From a virus, in IMG/VR virus record IMGVR_UViG_3300044645_002525, positions 1-64,000 of that record: a stretch of 64,000 bases of DNA. The stretch is one strand, 5' to 3'. Positions 24,330 through 64,000 of the stretch are shown piece after piece (positions within the stretch are counted from its first letter, which is position 1; every line of letters starts with the position of its first letter). The notes under the pieces are model-generated. The model worked only from the letters and a program-made list of their open reading frames with translations, did no database searches and was not told where the DNA came from. A program made the translations under genes and the position numbers.

Positions 24330-24685
24330 TGGCCTGTATTACGACTTTCTACCATCTTAATGATGCGTTTAGCCCATGCCCTCCCGGCATCTCCTCCCCA
24401 TAGCAGCCAAGCAATATATCCAGCATCGTTCTCTCCACCGCTTTTATTCTTCTCATGCCGAGAGAAGAATGCAGACATACGCTTGATTGTGGCATAGCTA
24501 ATCTTGCTGCCACCAGCCAAATCACCAGCCCTGGCAACGCCGCTACCAATACCTTGTTTGCCTGCCTCCTGCGTTGTTAAGCCGCCCTTGCCGTGCTTCT
24601 TGCGCAGTTCCAACCCTCGACGGGCAGCACTTCGCACGGCGGCGGGAGGGGAGAAACTCTCAGCATCTCCCCTCAGCGCTTTTTT
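24326..24685 (-). CDS. Small basic phage domain (RMSAFFSRH...IAWLLWGGDAG), probably reached by -1 frameshift from the upstream ORF
   Basis: Frame is open upstream of the GTG at 24637 (ALRGDAESFSPPAAVRSAARRGL) back through the A AAA AAG site; no ATG/GTG/TTG further upstream in this frame and no SD before the GTG. Confidence 0.7.
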   Translation of the reverse strand, partial: KKALRGDAESFSPPAAVRSAARRGLELRKKHGKGGLTTQEAGKQGIGSGVARAGDLAGGSKISYATIKRMSAFFSRHEKNKSGGENDAGYIAWLLWGGDAGRAWAKRIIKMVESRNTGQ

Positions 24686-24927
24686 CCGCAGCTCCCATCC
24701 ATTTCCTCTTCTTCTTCCTCTTCGCCAATCATCTCCTTAAAGAAGCCCATATAGTATTCGTCGCTCATGTCTTCTTTTGGCTTGCGCGTCATGCCAGCTT
24801 CAGACAAGGCAATTGCTAGTGCTTGCTTCGGACTCTTCACGGCTTCGCCACTGCTGCTCTTCAGCTTGCCGCTTTTGTATTCGCGCATCACCTTGGCAAT
24901 TTTTGCCTGCTTTTCCTTCTTGGTCAT
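24673..24927 (-). CDS. Small protein, DUF6496-like
   Basis: KIAKVMREYKSGKLKSSSG..VKSPKQALAIALSEAG signature. Confidence 0.75.
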   Translation of the reverse strand: MTKKEKQAKIAKVMREYKSGKLKSSSGEAVKSPKQALAIALSEAGMTRKPKEDMSDEYYMGFFKEMIGEEEEEEEMDGSCGKKR

Positions 24928-24954
24928 AGCGCTAAATGCTTTCCTTAAGCATAA

Positions 24955-26379: not shown

Positions 26380-27603
26380 TCAGGCGATTTTTGCGGGAGT
26401 GCCAAAGCCTTTAAATTCAGGCTCCGCAGGCTTGACAGCTAGTGTTTCATTCACTGCATCCTTGAGCTGCTGCTGAATATAGGGCCAAGTAAAGGGCTCT
26501 TCGTGGAGACGGTTATAGCACCATTGACCATGCTGCTTCAAAATGTCGCGATTCTCATAGTAATAAGTGAGGATATCGGCGGCGCACTCAGGGTCTGGCA
26601 ATAATCGCTCAAGCCCATAGTTTCTGTCGGTTTCACTGGCATTGCATTCAATGCGAGGCATCTCATCAAAGATTTCAGCCAAGCTCGTATGATCAGGAAC
26701 CACTTGCGCCACACCAGTGGCACCATGCTCTGAGTTGACCAAGCCCCATCCTTCGCCAATGCAAGTGTTAATGCCAATATCAGCAGCGTTATACACTTGA
26801 TTGAGTTGTTCAATGGGGAGGCAATTGCCCACTGAATAGTGCGGGCTTGTCAAAATAAGCTTGCCAGTGGCATCAAACCCTTCGTCACGTGCCACTCGCT
26901 TGAAGAGATCAATGATTGGCCAGCCAAGATCTTTTGCTCCCATGTTCAACCAAAGGCGAGCATCATCTTTGTCCTTGGCAAACTTGATAAAGGCTTTAAT
27001 CGTCAGGTCAATGCGCTTTCTGGGTTGATTTCTGTTTCCGTTAAAGACAACAAACACATCGTCCGGTACTCCCAAGATCTTTCGACACTCCTTCTTGTCC
27101 ATCGGGAAGAATTTGGTGAAGTCAGTGCCGTGACCGATAATGCGAATGGGCTTTGTATAACCCATGATCTCTAGTTCTTTTTTAGCAAATTTGGTGTAAG
27201 TGGCCAAGCCGTCCCATTCCATCATTGGGGGAGTGAGATTTGGGAACAATCCATACGAATCAATAGGAGTGTACACAAACCATTTGAAGCCAAGCTTCTC
27301 CCTAAGTGGCTTGGCATTTTCCCATAGACTCAATGCAATCCAGATGTCGTTTGTAATCCATACCAGATCCGGCTTTATTGCTTGAATTACGCTCGCAATA
27401 CGATGAGACCCAAAAGGATCATTCCCATGCGCCATTGCTGGATACATTTTGCAATGCTGCTGCATAGGAGAAGGGTCTCCGTGCCAGTTGGTGCATAACG
27501 CATGTACTTCATATTCCTCCGCGAGCGCTGGAATTAGGTATTCGGCAACTCGCCCAAATCCCGTTTGTACTCCGACATCACCTGCGTAGAGAATCTTTTT
27601 CAT
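26380..27603 (-). CDS. Glycosyltransferase family 4 (GT-B)
   Basis: TGFGRV, HGTD..KF, NRNQPRKRID and YNAADIGINTCIGEGWGLVNSE (E-x7-E) motifs. Confidence 0.9.
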   Translation of the reverse strand: MKKILYAGDVGVQTGFGRVAEYLIPALAEEYEVHALCTNWHGDPSPMQQHCKMYPAMAHGNDPFGSHRIASVIQAIKPDLVWITNDIWIALSLWENAKPLREKLGFKWFVYTPIDSYGLFPNLTPPMMEWDGLATYTKFAKKELEIMGYTKPIRIIGHGTDFTKFFPMDKKECRKILGVPDDVFVVFNGNRNQPRKRIDLTIKAFIKFAKDKDDARLWLNMGAKDLGWPIIDLFKRVARDEGFDATGKLILTSPHYSVGNCLPIEQLNQVYNAADIGINTCIGEGWGLVNSEHGATGVAQVVPDHTSLAEIFDEMPRIECNASETDRNYGLERLLPDPECAADILTYYYENRDILKQHGQWCYNRLHEEPFTWPYIQQQLKDAVNETLAVKPAEPEFKGFGTPAKIA

Positions 27604-58482: not shown

Positions 58483-60537
58483 TCAGAAGAAGTCGTGATC
58501 CTCTTCCCTTTCGGGAAGATTTTCATTTGTCACCATGGAAACAGGCTCTTGTGGTGGAGCTTCTTCCCGAGCGGGAATTTCAAAATCTGCTTCTTTTTCA
58601 CTTTCAGTGAAATTTGGTTCTTCCTGAAAATCAAGCTCAGGCTCAACATAGTCCCACGAATGGTAAAGACGCTCGCGTTCTCCATTGGGACCAACAACAA
58701 AGCTACTGCTAATCAAACCCTGCCGCCTTGCCACTTCCAGCATTTTGCCAGTGGAGCTGGTTTCAAAGCTTCCAGACAATGCTGCCACTTGCTGTTTAGA
58801 GAAGCGTTCATTTTGACGCATCTCAACTACATTCACCACTTGATTCAGCTCTTCTAGGGATCCGCCTTGTGGTCCTGCATAATGCCAGCCATAAGTGAGG
58901 TTGTCTCGCTTGAGCACATGCTTACCAGTGAGGCCACTCCTACTCTTCATCCATTCGAGCGTAAATTCATTTGGATCGTAGCTTTCAGAACGAGTGAGCT
59001 TTACCACTTCACTAACGTTATCAACGAAGCTAGTGGAATCACGCAGTCCTCCATTTTTGTTGAGATGGTGGAGGATGAGAATGGAACAGCGATAAGTGTT
59101 GGCAAGATCACGCAGGCCATAAATCACATCGCCTGCATTGCTCTTTACCATATCCACGTCCATACCAGCAAGGCAGGCAGTGAGGCTATCAATCACGATA
59201 AACAGAGGACGTTCCTTTCTCACGTAGTCCTCAAGCTGTTTCATATGGGCGAAGCGCCAAGTCTCCCAGAATTCAATGGTGCCAGGCTCCAGTGGAGTGT
59301 CTTGATAGCCAATAACGGAAAGCTTTTCGCTTGTGTCGATGAGAGGTTCGTCGCTTTGGCAAACTAAAGTTTTGCCTTTCATGCAACGGCGCCCGCTCCA
59401 TTTTGTGCCAAGACCAATATGAAGAGCCCAGTTGTAAGCCACCGTCGATTTGCCAGTGCCGCCTCCAGCAGCAAGCAGCGTCACGCTTCCCAAGGGAATG
59501 ATGCCAGCAATCAGCCATTCACGGGCTTTATCGGCATTAGCAATGGAAAGAGCGTCAATACTTTCAAGCTCTTCCCTTCCATAGATGCGATCTTTAGCTT
59601 CTGCAATAATCTTGTCAACATTCTGCTGGCTCATCTTTACGCCACGCTGCTCTAGCCAATTGCTGGTTTCATAAGCAATGCGAGAGTCATTGGCATAGAG
59701 GCCAACAAAGTTTTCAATGGTGGAAATAATCTCCTCATATGCAGGCTTGCCATCTTGCCCTTGATGCCTGCTTTTTGAAACAATGGAGGAAAGAAGGTCG
59801 TCTTTAGTGGCACCTTCTTCAATGTAGTCGCCTAAGTCATAGCCATTGCCAGGGGGAAGATTGTCCCATTCCCATGAACGAGGATCTGCATAAAGCCAGC
59901 TTGCTCCAGGATTATCACTGGCAATTTCTGCCATGAATGCAACGCCTTGCTCGTCGCGATCAGGACAAAGTACAAGCTTTCTATTGCGGAATAAGCTTGT
60001 GTAGTCACCATTTGTACGGTATTGTTTGCTGCCTCCAAGGAAAGTAATACAAGGAAGATCAAGCGCCCAAACTGATTCGCAGGTGAGTTCTCCTTCAACA
60101 ATAAAAATGGGAAGACCAGTTTCTTCACTCTTCGCCACTGCTTCTTCGTAGCGATAGGGCAACACATTGGCCTTGATTTCCTTGAGCTTGGTTTTATGTC
60201 CGTTCTCGCTTTTGTCAATAGTAGGAAAGTCTTGCCAAATTTTTTTGGAGCCCGAAGTGTCGTCACGATGGACGATAACCACTTCCTTTCCATGGTTATT
60301 TTTGTAGACAAACGTATAGTTGCCCGCATCACGAGGCGGCTTCTCCCATCTGGTGAGAGGGGCTAGGGCATCACGAATTTCGGCCCGGTGCGCAGGGCTG
60401 GTGTCATGCCAGCAGTTGTATGCCTCTGTGTTTTTGTTGATTGTGAAATCGTTACCGCCGCATGCAGGACAGTGGTATTTCCCTGGCTCATTGCTTGGCT
60501 CCAGTTGCTCAAGGTGGTCAAGGATGGAAAAGGCCAT
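58483..60537 (-). CDS. Primase-helicase (Zn finger + TOPRIM + RecA-like AAA helicase)
   Basis: CPAC...CWH; IVEGE; CPDRD; Walker A GGGTGKS; IVIDSL; ILHH.NK. Confidence 0.9.
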   Translation of the reverse strand: MAFSILDHLEQLEPSNEPGKYHCPACGGNDFTINKNTEAYNCWHDTSPAHRAEIRDALAPLTRWEKPPRDAGNYTFVYKNNHGKEVVIVHRDDTSGSKKIWQDFPTIDKSENGHKTKLKEIKANVLPYRYEEAVAKSEETGLPIFIVEGELTCESVWALDLPCITFLGGSKQYRTNGDYTSLFRNRKLVLCPDRDEQGVAFMAEIASDNPGASWLYADPRSWEWDNLPPGNGYDLGDYIEEGATKDDLLSSIVSKSRHQGQDGKPAYEEIISTIENFVGLYANDSRIAYETSNWLEQRGVKMSQQNVDKIIAEAKDRIYGREELESIDALSIANADKAREWLIAGIIPLGSVTLLAAGGGTGKSTVAYNWALHIGLGTKWSGRRCMKGKTLVCQSDEPLIDTSEKLSVIGYQDTPLEPGTIEFWETWRFAHMKQLEDYVRKERPLFIVIDSLTACLAGMDVDMVKSNAGDVIYGLRDLANTYRCSILILHHLNKNGGLRDSTSFVDNVSEVVKLTRSESYDPNEFTLEWMKSRSGLTGKHVLKRDNLTYGWHYAGPQGGSLEELNQVVNVVEMRQNERFSKQQVAALSGSFETSSTGKMLEVARRQGLISSSFVVGPNGERERLYHSWDYVEPELDFQEEPNFTESEKEADFEIPAREEAPPQEPVSMVTNENLPEREEDHDFF

Positions 60538-60989: not shown

Positions 60990-61430
60990 GCTCGCTTGTG
61001 AAGACTTCCTTCTTGAGTATGCCGACACAGAAGTGAAGCTGCTTTGGGAAGAGGGCGTACTCACGGAAAACTACGATCCTGATTGCTTGGAAGAGCCTAC
61101 TGATGTGAGAGCCATCAATGACTGGCCGCTTCCTGGCGACAGCTTGATTGTTAAGAGCGAAATGCCTTCCAAGATGTTTGTCATTATGTACGGCGAATAT
61201 CAAGCGGCCTTCGGCTACAAAGCAGTGGCGCACTTGGGATGATGGAAACGCCTAATCTCACCACGTCTGAGCTTTATGCTCGCATGAAGCAAATGGACCA
61301 TGATGTGCTTCATTGTCTTGATTGCTTTCTTTCCGATACTGGTGTGGCCGTGGTTGGCCTGAATCTTTCGTTTGACGAAGAAAGCGAAGAGTATCTTCTT
61401 GATTGGCATTTCGCTTTTCTTGAAGAATGA
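60970..61430 (+). CDS. Two acidic hypothetical proteins (60970-61242; 61239-61430)
   Basis: Translationally coupled ORFs. Confidence 0.6.
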
Positions 61431-62365
61431 ACCACACCTTTCTCACTTATTCCCCCTCCGACTTTTCCAGCATGGAAGATCCCGCAAAACAAGCAATGAT
61501 CGAACGCTCTCTGGGCATGTTTACGCCGCTTGAAATCAGCGCCGAAGCTTTCCGCGCTGCTTACGACACTCCAGACATTGGCCCTCACATCGAGAAGGAC
61601 TACAAAGGTCTTTCCTATCTGTCTTGGCCGTTTGCCTTCCGCTACCTGAAGGAACATTTCCCGACGCTGTTCGTAGCGTTTGAAGAGAAGACCATTGGCT
61701 GGCCTGTATTTGGCGAGCCTGGTGCCTTCATCCTTCGTCCCTATCTGACAGATGGCGTAAGGCGCACTCCTGCGCTGGTGTTTCCCGTGATGGACAGGAA
61801 GCACAATTCCATTCAGCAGCTCGACGGTCGTGCAATCAGCGACAACATCCAACGTGCCAGTGTCAAAGCCATTGCTACGTTCACGGGCCTTGGTCTTCGG
61901 CTCTATGCCGGAGAGGACATCCCTAAGGAAGAAGCGCCAAAGCTGCAGCAGGACACGCTCAAGACGCCTGCACGCACGAAGACTGCCCCTAAGGAAAGCG
62001 CTGCTGCTGCTGGAAGCGAGGGGCCTGTTGCCACCGCCGATACAGGGTCCGCTGAACCTTTCGATGCAAAAGCAGTTCTTACAGCAGTGTGCAAAGCCAA
62101 TCCTTTGAACTATGCCGACGAAAAAGCTGCTATGGCTGCAGGCAAAGCTGCTCTTGAAAGCATTGGACTTGCTCGCGCCACGGAAGTCAAAACCTGGCAA
62201 GCCTTCGGAAACGTCGTCGCAGCAATGATGACGCTATGGGCAAAGGAGCAGGAGATCATCATCAGCAAAGCTGAGATGACAGAAGAAATCAACATTGTCC
62301 GTGGTCTTGCTACCACTGACGAAGTGATTGAAGGCATGAAAGCTTTCGTCGCAAAAAAGCAGTAG
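61427..62365 (+). CDS. Sak/Rad52-like single-strand annealing protein (DUF1071-like)
   Basis: GLSYLSW..A; PVMD.K.N; I...IQRA.VKAIA..TGLGLRLYAGEDIP. Confidence 0.85.
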   Translation: MNHTFLTYSPSDFSSMEDPAKQAMIERSLGMFTPLEISAEAFRAAYDTPDIGPHIEKDYKGLSYLSWPFAFRYLKEHFPTLFVAFEEKTIGWPVFGEPGAFILRPYLTDGVRRTPALVFPVMDRKHNSIQQLDGRAISDNIQRASVKAIATFTGLGLRLYAGEDIPKEEAPKLQQDTLKTPARTKTAPKESAAAAGSEGPVATADTGSAEPFDAKAVLTAVCKANPLNYADEKAAMAAGKAALESIGLARATEVKTWQAFGNVVAAMMTLWAKEQEIIISKAEMTEEINIVRGLATTDEVIEGMKAFVAKKQ

Positions 62366-62553
62366 ATCTAGCAGCGGCCCGTCTGGCACGGGCCTTTGCT
62401 GGAACCATTTGCCTTGATGCTGATGACCTTCCCGTTACTGAGCTTCCTCCCGCCTTATTTGGCGAATGATCCCCTTGGTCTGTTCCTTCTCGTTACCTTC
62501 CTATGCCTGATCATTGCTCTGTCGATTCTGGCTATCCTTTCGCTGATGGTCCC

Positions 62554-63288
62554 ATGAGCCGTTTCACTTTTACTTACGAAGAAGGCGAAACGAAGGTTTC
62601 CTATTCGTTCCACAATATCTACTGCCCTGAGATTGTCGAGCATTTCAAGCAGTTTGTTTTGGCTTGTGGCTTCTTTGAAACTTCAATAATGGCTGCAATG
62701 GCAACCATGGTTGAAGAATACGAAACGATGGAAGAAAAGCGTGCGCAATCACCGTTCTCTGATTGATGCTTGCCATGAAGCATTCTGGAGCTTTCCTGAC
62801 GACACTCTTAGCAGTGATCGTCGCATTGCTGCTCTTCTTGAGACCATTGCTAATCATCCTTTGGCTGACAAGCAATTTCTTCGTCAAACTGCTCGAACTA
62901 TTCTCATGGCTGACATTGCGATGTGCATGGGGGGTGAATGCCCTGTCAAGGAAAATTGCTGGCGTTACATGGCGCCTGCTAGTCGTTGGCAAAGCTATTT
63001 CGCTACGCCTCCAGCGGATGAAGAAGGTTGCGACTATTTCTGGGACATGAACGAGGAATGAAAACCAACAAAGAGACAGTCCTTGCTTCTGACGCGCTTT
63101 CTCCTGATGGGCGAATGATGGCCAAAATCTTAATGGAGAAAGATGGAGTGAGCATTGAACGCTTGTTCAATCTTTTGGCAGAATTTAAAAGCAATATTGA
63201 GCAACTTGAGCGCTATTCGCAGCAAATGGATTCTGCTATTGACCAAGCACAATACGACATTGATTGTCACATCAGGAATCATGATTAA
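62554..63288 (+). CDS. Three small hypothetical genes (62554-62766; about 62711-63061 with DIAMC.G..CP.KE.C.RY; 63058-63288)
   Basis: Co-oriented overlapping ORFs. Confidence 0.6.
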
Positions 63289-63326
63289 AAGTGGCCTGTT
63301 ACGATCTACGCCTTGCCTCCCTCCAA

Positions 63327-64000
63327 ATGCCAGCATTTCCCCGCTACGAGCCCAACCGACTCCAAATTCAGAAAAAGCGTTACTATTTGCTGAACGATTT
63401 TCCAAATGTTCCAGAAGGGTTTGTTTTGCCTTCTGTGACGACTATTGCGAGCGCGTGTTCTCCGCCTGGCAAGATTGCAGCGCTAATGAACTGGCGCAAG
63501 AAGGTGGGAAATGAAGAAGCTAATCGTCGCACTCGTAATGCTGTGGATCGAGGCAATTGGCTTCACGGTGTTCTAGAAGACTTCTGGAATGGTGAAGACA
63601 TTCAAGCGCATCTTGATTCTCATGAAAATTACGTGCCCTATTTTGAGAGCATTGTTGGTTTTCTTGAGCGTGTTGATAGTCCATTGCTAGTTGAAAGTGC
63701 CATTGCCTGGTACGATCCTGCACAAGAGATTGGTTATTCAGGCACCTTTGATATGCTTGCCAAAATGAACAGCGGTGCGTATGCACTGCTTGATTGGAAG
63801 ACAAGCTACAAAGAAAAGCCTGATACACAACTAGCCGACTATCGCATGCAGCTTGGTGCTTATGTGCAGGCTATTGAGCAGATGTATGACATCGAAGTGA
63901 ATGAAGCGCATTGCGCCATCGCCATTCATGATCCTGATACTGGCCATTCCCAAGAAGCGCAAATCGTGAGTCTCTCAGCAGGGGAGCTTGCGATGCAAGC
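63327..64000 (+). CDS. PD-(D/E)xK exonuclease, runs off the right edge (partial; absent from ORF track)
   Basis: LPSVTTI...WRKKVG..EA...RG..LH...E...YSGTFD...LLDWKTS...Y.MQLGAY. Confidence 0.9.
   Translation, partial: MPAFPRYEPNRLQIQKKRYYLLNDFPNVPEGFVLPSVTTIASACSPPGKIAALMNWRKKVGNEEANRRTRNAVDRGNWLHGVLEDFWNGEDIQAHLDSHENYVPYFESIVGFLERVDSPLLVESAIAWYDPAQEIGYSGTFDMLAKMNSGAYALLDWKTSYKEKPDTQLADYRMQLGAYVQAIEQMYDIEVNEAHCAIAIHDPDTGHSQEAQIVSLSAGELAMQ

Follow-up and report, generated by a model that had tools for sequence, protein, structure and literature searches.

Programmed −1 ribosomal frameshifting has, to our knowledge, been described in only a few gene types of bacteria and phages, namely dnaX, the transposases of IS elements, tail assembly chaperones, a few capsid genes, copA and cdd. 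The dnaX gene of Escherichia coli carries the same heptamer (A_AAA_AAG) as the Sak-like phage gene described here, with a GC-rich stem-loop a few bases 3′ of it (AGGGAG..A AAA AAG AGTGAA CCGGCAGCC..), and the likeness extends to the arrangement, a single DNA-metabolism gene yielding two isoforms, one of them with an additional C-terminal module. However, the dnaX shift truncates the product (gamma) and it is the unshifted tau that has the extra domains, whereas a shift in the Sak-like gene would extend the protein. The dnaX site also has an upstream Shine-Dalgarno-like enhancer, whereas in the aligned relatives of the Sak-like gene the codons 5′ of the heptamer are variable and no conserved enhancer of this kind was found. 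Furthermore, none of the Rfam families, the dnaX-type element included, matched the site even at E ≤ 0.05, and no protein likeness of the tail to DnaX was found.

In gene 10A/10B of the phages T7/T3 and in cdd of Bacillus subtilis, a −1 shift just before the stop codon provides a minority of chains with a short C-terminal extension. These genes, coding for a capsid protein and a cytidine deaminase, use other slippery sequences than the Sak-like gene, whose extension peptide is conserved over ~120 distinct sequences; for the cdd extension we know of no function. The frameshift in the tail assembly chaperone gene G/GT of phage lambda takes place on the heptamer G_GGA_AAG, is conserved across phages and keeps a fixed ratio of short to long product, with the extension binding a partner. 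This heptamer is the alternative found in a distant clade of Sak loci, but G/GT is a structural assembly gene with an extension of domain size, while Sak is a recombination protein with an extension of 23–43 aa.

Regarding the protein itself, the Sak annealing protein of the staphylococcal phage 80alpha and human RAD52 (PDB 8qe9, 8pq8; PMC11846896) resemble the Sak-like protein in having a Rad52-like N-terminal annealing domain, a flexible linker and a helical-bundle C-terminal domain. In 80alpha Sak, the C-terminal domain acts together with the acidic tip at the C-terminus of the phage SSB (PMC11846896), and the phage described here likewise has a gene for an SSB-like protein whose acidic tip reads ..DDPF. 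In contrast to the gene described here, no frameshift or alternative C-terminus has been reported for 80alpha Sak or RAD52. Our literature searches on a frameshift in Sak, in other annealing proteins or in phage S-CBS4 returned nothing relevant, we found no annotation of the site, and a recoded Sak-like gene appears to be undescribed so far.

The Sak-like gene and its neighbors

The window, i.e. the whole stretch of DNA analyzed here, comprises positions 1 to 64,000 of the IMG/VR record IMGVR_UViG_3300044645_002525, the complete phage genome being 77 kb in size. By profile and fold, the gene product is assigned to the Sak/Rad52-like annealing family, with its activity being predicted. It matched PF06378 with an E-value of 3.1e-19 (69.5 bits, cut-off 22.3) and phrog_8492 with an E-value of 5.6e-46, covering profile positions 7–267 of 269. 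The protein consists of an N-terminal annealing domain (approximately aa 1–165), a disordered linker (162–209) and a C-terminal domain of five helices (211–312), the latter modeled by AF2 with a pLDDT >90; its C-terminal helix (297–311 of Sak-S) stops at the slip site. The best Foldseek matches were 80alpha Sak (probability 0.98–1.0, E 0.03) and RAD52, and the C-terminal domain was without a clear structural match in Foldseek.

Downstream, the stop codon of a small membrane protein gene overlaps the ATG of the next gene (ATGA at 62554). This ORF of 43–47 aa is conserved in most relatives and missing in S-CBS4-type loci, whose tail ends with ..SPWTT. An exonuclease of the same recombination module adjoins Sak in 76 loci, among them the most distant relatives that have the tail; identity was 53–98% in the loci read completely. 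In the phage described here, an SSB-like protein of 89 aa with the C-terminus SDDPF comes after the exonuclease. In the relatives, the C-termini of the SSB-like protein read [SN]DD[PL]F, with SDDPF or SDDLF in 67 loci. Neither family A or family B polymerases nor DnaX are encoded in the whole 77-kb genome.

Table 1 Coordinates of the Sak-like gene, its 3′ elements and neighboring genes in the window.
Feature	Position	Strand	Remarks
Sak-like (Rad52-type) single-strand annealing gene	61427..62365	+	0-frame product Sak-S, 312 aa
Slippery heptamer A_AAA_AAG	62353..62359	+	X_XXY_YYZ register, GC[A AAA AAG]
0-frame stop TAG	62363..62365	+	one codon past the heptamer
−1 frame extension	62359..62469	+	36 codons + TGA (62467-62469); would add the tail to Sak
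Conserved tail core, ~27 aa	62359..62439	+	helix [AV][IV]DLAAARLARAFAG, then x[ILV]x x[DN]xDxxP[LIVF]
3′ stem-loop, putatively stimulatory	62368..62402	+	8 nt past the heptamer; outer stem 62368-62374 / 62396-62402, inner stem 62376-62382 / 62388-62394, loop 62383-62387
Small membrane protein gene, 46 aa (..FLPPYLANDPLGLFLL..)	62417..62557	+	0-frame; shares sequence with the final third of the tail ORF
PD-(D/E)XK exonuclease	63291..64000, continuing to 64091 beyond the window	+	same recombination module; phrog_298 E 1.3e-44; PF12705

Heptamer, stem-loop and −1 frame in related loci

A first-pass annotation of this DNA had described the gene end (GCA AAA AAG CAG TAG) with its heptamer, a hairpin 8 nt downstream and a −1 frame of 36 aa without an ATG, GTG or TTG of its own, and all of these are present in the sequence. 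The heptamer lies inside the region in which 0 and −1 frames overlap (62332–62365), and the −1 frame is devoid of start codons from its upstream stop (before 62332) to its end. Translated from 62359, it reads AVDLAAARLARAFAGTICLDADDLPVTELPPALFGE. The predicted long isoform, Sak-L, would thus consist of residues 1–311 plus 36 residues (347 aa), with ..FVAKK joined to AVDLAAAR.. at the junction. Read-through of the stop codon could not yield this tail, because a second 0-frame TAG follows at 62369–62371. With a chance of (61/64)^36, i.e. ~0.18, 36 open codons are unremarkable by their length, and it is the comparative data rather than the open frame that place the slip-site cassette far beyond chance.

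The comparison comprised 195 related loci (122 distinct versions) with protein identities down to 50%. A first set contained 79 loci at 58–94% identity and a second set 113 loci reaching the gene end; in addition, four loci at 50–54% identity were located on genome contigs, three of which extend past the gene end with the heptamer, while the fourth stops 4 nt after the stop codon. The in-register heptamer was kept in 79/79 loci of the first set, 113/113 of the second and 3/3 of the contig loci that were long enough, so that all 195 loci have either A_AAA_AAG or G_GGA_AAG. The genome contigs are MAG contigs resembling binned phage DNA. The site is also carried, unannotated, by the cultured Synechococcus phage S-CBS4, in which the predicted junction would read ..ASKK|VDLAAALLAR.

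A_AAA_AAG is unchanged across 56 distinct sequences of the near clade and occurs in 83 distinct versions overall; a distant clade (39 distinct sequences) has G_GGA_AAG instead, likewise in register. The 0-frame stop is found 0 or 3 nt (0–1 codons) 3′ of the heptamer in 122/122 distinct versions. The three heptamer codons have a wobble entropy of 0, compared to ~1.5 bits at nearby wobble positions, and the codon 5′ of the heptamer always has A as its third base (G in the case of G_GGA_AAG), under nine different amino acids (A, S, V, G, R, E, T, Q, K). Within the window, AAAAAAG is rarer than expected, with 7 copies versus 24.1 +/- 4.7 in dinucleotide-preserving shuffles.

The stem-loop (CTAGCA-gc-GGCCCGT-ctggc-ACGGGCC-tt-TGCTGG) has an MFE of −26.8 kcal/mol (z = −3.0). 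The spacer of 8 nt is shortened to 5 nt in relatives in which the stop codon directly follows the heptamer. In the alignment, 93.6% of the cells are paired, compared to 35–53% in a control with the partner strand slid, and five base pairs of the hairpin show compensatory double changes. Other clades have structurally different hairpins at the identical position, with a mean z of −3.6. A role as a mere terminator, named in the first-pass annotation as a finding that would speak against recoding, does not fit the sequence: since the site has neither a T-run nor a terminator-like call and the downstream genes are tightly packed, the hairpin is, as judged by sequence, not a terminator.

The −1 ORF has a length of 23–43 codons across the 122 distinct versions. 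Indels in this region are multiples of three, and wobble bases vary beneath the invariant D, A, F, G and P, giving a three-base periodicity; of 113 distinct peptides, all have the G and 109 have the F. The invariant G15 and P25 as well as the near-invariant C18 and D20 are located outside the stem, again with variable wobble bases. Over the conserved core of the tail, pN/pS amounts to 0.44 in the −1 frame compared to 0.87 and 1.62 in the other two frames, and the analysis repeated with 55 distant sequences gave 0.53 versus 0.96 and 1.17. The sequence comparison thus shows purifying selection on the tail in the −1 frame only. From tail codon ~25 on, the constraint moves to the frame of the membrane protein (pN/pS 0.50 vs 1.39), and in this clade it is this overlapping gene, not the tail itself, that explains why the last third is conserved. 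Similarly, the richness of the tail in Ala, Arg and Gly may partly be imposed by the GC-rich hairpin it overlaps. AF2 predicts a helix for residues 2–13 of the tail, and this helix, not the acidic end, is its best-conserved portion.

An in-frame tail was found in 0/78 protein clusters sharing the C-terminal domain. Instead, all 78 end with ..KK[x] at 190–319 aa, all but three of them at 292–319. We also found no longer protein containing the tail peptide at E ≤ 10, and the tail motif was not found again elsewhere in the 77-kb genome. Altogether, the cassette is conserved, its −1 peptide is under purifying selection, and the tail never occurs in-frame in the sequences compared.

Recoding and other explanations of the conserved gene end

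The three sequence features of a programmed −1 site, i.e. an in-register heptamer, a covarying 3′ structure and a coding −1 ORF without a start, are all found at this locus. It is therefore very likely, as far as sequence can tell, that the 3′ end of the Sak-like gene forms a programmed −1 ribosomal frameshift cassette giving Sak-S and Sak-L. The proposal of the first-pass annotation that a −1 shift adds a tail to some Sak subunits is strongly supported by this comparison, in which heptamer, stop, stem-loop and peptide are all kept, heptamers are swapped, base pairs are compensated and selection acts on the −1 frame. We infer that slippage would take place at the heptamer: while Lys-tRNAs occupy AAA-AAG of A_AAA_AAG and the stem-loop sits where the mRNA enters the ribosome, some ribosomes would slip back by one base, bypass the TAG one codon further on and add 36 residues. 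Sak-L would presumably be the minor isoform.

Two other explanations of the conserved gene end appear very improbable, to a similar degree. Homopolymer slippage is employed by some bacteria and phages, and RNA polymerase adding one A within the A6 run would result in the same long protein with an identical junction (..KKAVD..). However, the run does not exceed six A's in any of the 83 distinct A_AAA_AAG versions and is always followed by G, and an entire clade has G_GGA_AAG and is thereby without a long homopolymer. A covarying hairpin at the spacing of ribosomal frameshift sites plays no part in polymerase slippage. RNA-labelled runs (five with small shares of the stretch, four of them examined) contained contigs of relatives which, at poor coverage and with none bridging the slip site informatively, showed no inserted A and speak neither for nor against expression of the long form.

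The alternative that no recoding occurs would explain the hairpin as an element of RNA stability, processing or termination, the heptamer as a conserved Lys-Lys end, and the −1 conservation as a by-product of the hairpin and the overlapping gene. The first 13 tail codons are indeed located inside the hairpin, and the last third overlaps a conserved 0-frame gene. Yet Lys-Lys has four spellings of which only AAA AAG occurs, and the preceding wobble base is fixed under nine amino acids. Moreover, the conserved residues G15, P25, C18 and D20 outside the stem, with their variable wobble bases, would not be accounted for, the peptide is retained where the hairpin sequence is wholly different and where the membrane protein gene is absent, and two independent sequence sets gave a low pN/pS in the −1 frame alone.

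Programmed −1 frameshifting, which we prefer, would make the Sak-like gene a deeply conserved example in a recombination protein and hence an additional gene class. The comparative record is unusually clean in that ~120 distinct natural variants conserve one peptide with either of two interchangeable heptamers and with several different hairpins, and the presence of the site in S-CBS4, a phage in culture, makes the proposed shift directly testable. The annotation would be corrected for a whole family of aquatic siphovirus genomes. In recombineering, the short form alone would normally be cloned, so the tail may matter there as well.

Possible roles of the tail

The likeliest role of the tail is that of a docking or regulatory addition to the C-terminal domain. 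It would extend the last helix of this five-helix domain, whose counterpart in 80alpha Sak works with an SSB tip, and for this reason the tail probably alters or adds a protein contact of the domain. One possibility is that it docks a partner, such as the exonuclease, the SSB-like protein, the primase-helicase or a host factor; alternatively, it could fill the binding site of its own C-terminal domain. The efficiency of frameshifting would set the share of modified subunits per annealing ring. A Sak family with two C-terminal forms, as suggested by the sequences, is relevant to the coupling of Rad52-like rings with SSB, nucleases or replisomes.

A more specific and rather tentative idea is that of a stoichiometry device, in which approximately one or few subunits per ring bear an adaptor tail coupling the ring to a conserved partner. 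Candidates for this partner could be the phage exonuclease or helicase-primase, a host factor binding SSB tips, or the host replisome. If this were true, recombination intermediates would be passed straight to resection or replication in a phage without a polymerase of its own.

Clearly less likely is that the acidic tail end, rich in Pro, Leu and Phe, imitates the [SN]DD[PL]F tip of the SSB of the phage, or else that of the host. The tail could then either fold into the SSB-tip site of its own domain, resulting in a self-blocked subunit, or display a tip to SSB-tip binders. This would be in line with the cooperation of C-terminal domain and SSB tip in 80alpha Sak (PMC11846896) and with the SDDPF or SDDLF ends of the phage SSB-like protein in 67 loci. 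Some tails end with ..NFDDLFA or ..DFSDLFS.., and most have D.D..P[LIVF] followed by a late LF, FF or PW. However, the likeness is loose, and the late LF is accounted for in this clade by the overlapping gene. In a genuine SSB tip, Phe has to be the last residue, as is the case in almost none of the tails, and the conservation of the tail is best in its helix and not in the acidic end.

The least probable reading, with hardly any chance of being correct, is the one put forward in the first-pass annotation, according to which the tail is a mimic of the DnaX tau C-terminus that brings the alpha subunit of host Pol III to recombination intermediates. Hub proteins are bound by short conserved modules such as this tail, but a search of 1.84 billion representative proteins with a profile built from 52 tails retrieved no DnaX, only small ORFs of the same locus and unrelated repeat proteins. 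In addition, no longer protein sharing the peptide was found at E ≤ 10. Likewise, no chain among the PDB sequences, tau and tau-alpha complexes included, was matched by the tail, and hhalign against full-length E. coli tau gave a match of 8 columns at residues 206–213, in the ATPase part and not the C-terminus, with a probability of 0.2%. The missing phage polymerase, which had been taken as support, holds for the complete genome, and the host replicase must therefore be used; this shows dependence on the host replicase only.

The late tail sequence ..LPPALFGE was considered as a clamp-binding-like motif and rejected, since this stretch is constrained by the overlapping membrane protein gene and is missing from S-CBS4-type tails. 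Overall, the tail is predicted to form an amphipathic helix rich in Ala, after which comes an acidic segment with Pro and hydrophobic residues.

Conservation of the slip site and tail frame

The first-pass annotation had described a heptamer, a hairpin and a −1 frame of 36 residues without a start codon of its own at the 3′ end of the sak gene, and all of these elements are present at the locus.

Positions of the features discussed (window coordinates unless stated otherwise)
Feature	Position	Strand	Remarks
Primase-helicase, 684 aa (Toprim + AAA_25)	58483-60537	-	replication gene
Sak/Rad52-like single-strand annealing protein	61427..62365	+	PF06378, phrog_8492
Heptamer A_AAA_AAG	62353-62359	+	X_XXY_YYZ register; gene end GC[A AAA AAG] CAG TAG
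Stem-loop	62368-62402	+	8 nt 3′ of heptamer; MFE -26.8 kcal/mol, z -3.0
-1 frame tail	from 62359, TGA at 62467-62469	+	36 residues
Single-pass membrane protein gene, 43-47 aa	62417..62557	+	conserved; ..FLPPYLANDPLGLFLL..
89-aa SSB-like protein	genome 64163-64432		just past window; weak match to a phage SSB family (phrog_18154, E 0.003)
Second cassette, heptamer	24679-24685 (region ~24330-24930)	-	in-register A_AAA_AAG
Further AAAAAAG	27177-27183	-	

The search for related loci yielded 80 viral contigs with Sak proteins of 58–94% identity, 79 of which extend to the gene end. In all 79, A_AAA_AAG stands in register, the 0-frame stop follows 0 or 3 nt past the heptamer and the −1 ORF spans 32–36 codons. 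Among 56 distinct sequences, wobble entropy is zero in the heptamer's three codons (neighbouring wobble sites average ~1.5 bits), and an upstream lysine codon is AAA in 28 cases and AAG in 10. Ahead of the heptamer, the codon is GCA, TCA or GTA, i.e. its final base is constant and the amino acid variable. The −1 peptide (hereafter, tail) has the consensus [AV][IV]DLAAARLARAFAG..C.D.D..P[ILV]. Its D, A, F, G, C, D and P residues are fixed or almost fixed, with free variation in the third base of their codons. Nei-Gojobori ratios for the first 24 codons of the tail were lowest in the −1 frame, at 0.44, versus 0.87 (0 frame) and 1.62 (+1 frame). In 52 distinct near-clade sequences, 93.6% of the cells of the 15-pair helix are standard pairs, a value that falls to 35–53% if the 3′ partner is slid by 1–3 columns, and compensatory double changes occur at five pairs (e.g. 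GGCCCGT/ACGGGCC, GGCCCTC/GAGGGCC, GGCGGC/GCCGCC). Heptamer, stem and −1 ORF, whose conservation in homologues had been suggested as a check, are all kept. Other clades carry unlike hairpins at the same position (mean z −3.6), including an 18–20-bp stem with a GAAA-type closing loop, GGCCTCC..GGGGGCC and TTGGCTCTTG/CAAGGGCCAA; the peptide motif is kept throughout.

Four genome-contig loci show 50–54% identity; three of them retain the heptamer, the stop next to it and a tail that reads V[DE]LA.A.[LF]A.AF.G.I, and the fourth contig stops 4 nt past the 0-frame stop, before a readable tail. With two of these loci as queries, 113 further viral loci were obtained, and the cassette (heptamer, adjacent stop and −1 ORF) was found in every one. 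G_GGA_AAG replaces A_AAA_AAG in register in 75 of the 113 (39 distinct versions); the codon ahead of the heptamer there has G as its last base, whether it encodes A, Q, E, K or V. Where the distant set has A_AAA_AAG, the last base of that codon is A, and the residues encoded are G, S, R, E, A and T. Selection on the −1 frame was replicated in 55 distinct sequences of the distant set (0.53 versus 0.96 and 1.17). Overall, the 122 distinct versions encode tails of 23–43 residues, and among the 113 distinct peptides G15 is retained in 113, A7 in 112 and F13 in 109. An in-frame tail is absent from all relatives, including the 78 protein clusters with this C-terminal domain that were checked (190–319 aa, all but three 292–319, ending ..KK[x]), and the tail peptide was found inside no longer protein.

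The end of the tail ORF overlaps, in another frame, the membrane-protein gene, whose stop shares ATGA with the start of the next gene. Beyond about tail codon 25, constraint shifts to the 0 frame (0.50 versus 1.39), and loci of the type of Synechococcus siphovirus S-CBS4, the nearest cultured relative of the record, are without the membrane-protein gene, keep the tail core and end in ..SPWTT. The ..LPPALFGE end noted in the first-pass annotation is therefore owed mostly to the overlapping gene. The functional core is the first ~27 residues.

Probable ribosomal frameshifting and other routes to the tail

At the sequence level, the canonical in-register heptamer, adjacent stop, covarying hairpin and start-less −1 ORF under protein-level selection are the hallmarks of a programmed −1 ribosomal frameshift, and the hairpin sits at frameshift spacing from the heptamer. 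The predicted products would be Sak-S (312 aa) and Sak-L (residues 1–311 plus 36, 347 aa). A_AAA_AAG is the dnaX/IS heptamer and G_GGA_AAG that of lambda G/GT. The recoding mechanism itself is of a known kind; what is new is the class of gene, how widely the site is conserved, and the range of heptamer and hairpin variants found in nature. In full-text literature searches, no description of recoding turned up for Sak or any other annealing protein, and in the S-CBS4 RefSeq entry gp079 has no frameshift and the tail region is unannotated on that strand.

Alternatively, the tail frame could be reached by RNA-polymerase slippage, but the exchange of A_AAA_AAG for G_GGA_AAG between clades, the fixed A6G run, which is never longer, and the presence of a hairpin argue against it. 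The hairpin itself has no T-run 3′ of the stem, no terminator-like call and no match to Rfam families. Stop read-through is ruled out as the source of the tail by a second 0-frame TAG two codons beyond the first.

Sak architecture and possible role of the tail

The Sak product scores 69.5 bits for PF06378 (cut-off 22.3), and its phrog_8492 alignment (E 5.6e-46) reaches to within two positions of the profile end, which marks the annotated C-terminus as normal for the family. The AlphaFold2 model has three parts: a Rad52-like N-terminal domain (best Foldseek matches 80alpha Sak and RAD52), a disordered linker (residues 162–209) and a confidently predicted five-helix C-terminal domain (211–312), whose last helix (297–311) stops exactly at the slip site. 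All tail-bearing relatives examined keep a module of an upstream 102-aa protein, Sak, a PD-(D/E)XK exonuclease (53–98% identity among module-bearing loci, more conserved than Sak) and the SSB-like protein. The latter ends in ..FSDDPF, and in [SN]DD[PL]F across homologues from 67 related loci, which resembles the C-terminal tip of bacterial SSB. In the staphylococcal phage 80alpha, coordinated annealing requires both the helical C-terminal domain of Sak and the last seven SSB residues (PMC11846896).

The tail is unique within the genome; it is predicted to form a helix at residues 2–13 and, after it, an extended acidic stretch. The simplest inference is that the tail alters or adds a contact of the Sak C-terminal domain; frameshift efficiency would set the share of tailed subunits per ring. 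The first-pass annotation had instead read the tail as a mimic of DnaX tau that recruits host Pol III, citing the lack of a phage polymerase. This lack holds for the complete 77-kb genome, where no family A or family B DNA polymerase and no DnaX was found and the replication genes seen are the primase-helicase and the recombination module. DNA polymerase is evidently supplied by the host, but as support for mimicry the absence shows reliance on the host replicase and nothing more. When 1.84 billion representative proteins were searched by HMMER with a profile built from 52 tails, nine matched. Five of these are ORFs of 36–63 aa predicted at loci of the same kind, and the others are unrelated repeat proteins, among them an RTX protein and an LppM-like repeat protein. 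The PDB contained no chain matching at E ≤ 0.1, and hhalign against full-length E. coli tau returned an 8-column match (residues 206–213, probability 0.2%). With no DnaX likeness in these comparisons, tau mimicry is highly improbable.

Genome context and further sites

The full IMG/VR record comprises 77,138 bp with direct terminal repeats (the window being its first 64 kb) and was found repeatedly in lake-water metagenomes. The recombination module also occurs on the contigs L085 (JBBAWA010000001.1, 76.8 kb), L083 and L084, assigned to MAGs of Methylacidiphilales, Rhodobiaceae and Gammaproteobacteria; the Sak protein of L085 is 99% identical to that of L088, a 77-kb IMG/VR virus record. These contigs appear to be phage genomes caught up in MAG binning, so they are no reliable guide to the host.

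AAAAAAG occurs seven times in the window versus 24.1 ± 4.7 in shuffles that preserve dinucleotides but not codon usage, a roughly three-fold depletion loosely consistent with avoidance of shifty sequence. Two of the seven copies lie in frameshift-like cassettes. In the second cassette, of like build, the 0-frame stop lies one codon past the heptamer and is followed by a 9-bp hairpin with perfect pairing (GAGGGGAGA..TCTCCCCTC). Upstream, 90 codons are open in the 0 frame; downstream, the −1 frame runs open for 117. At the further AAAAAAG in the table, the −1 frame is open for 265 codons after the site and the in-register frame for only 13 codons upstream.
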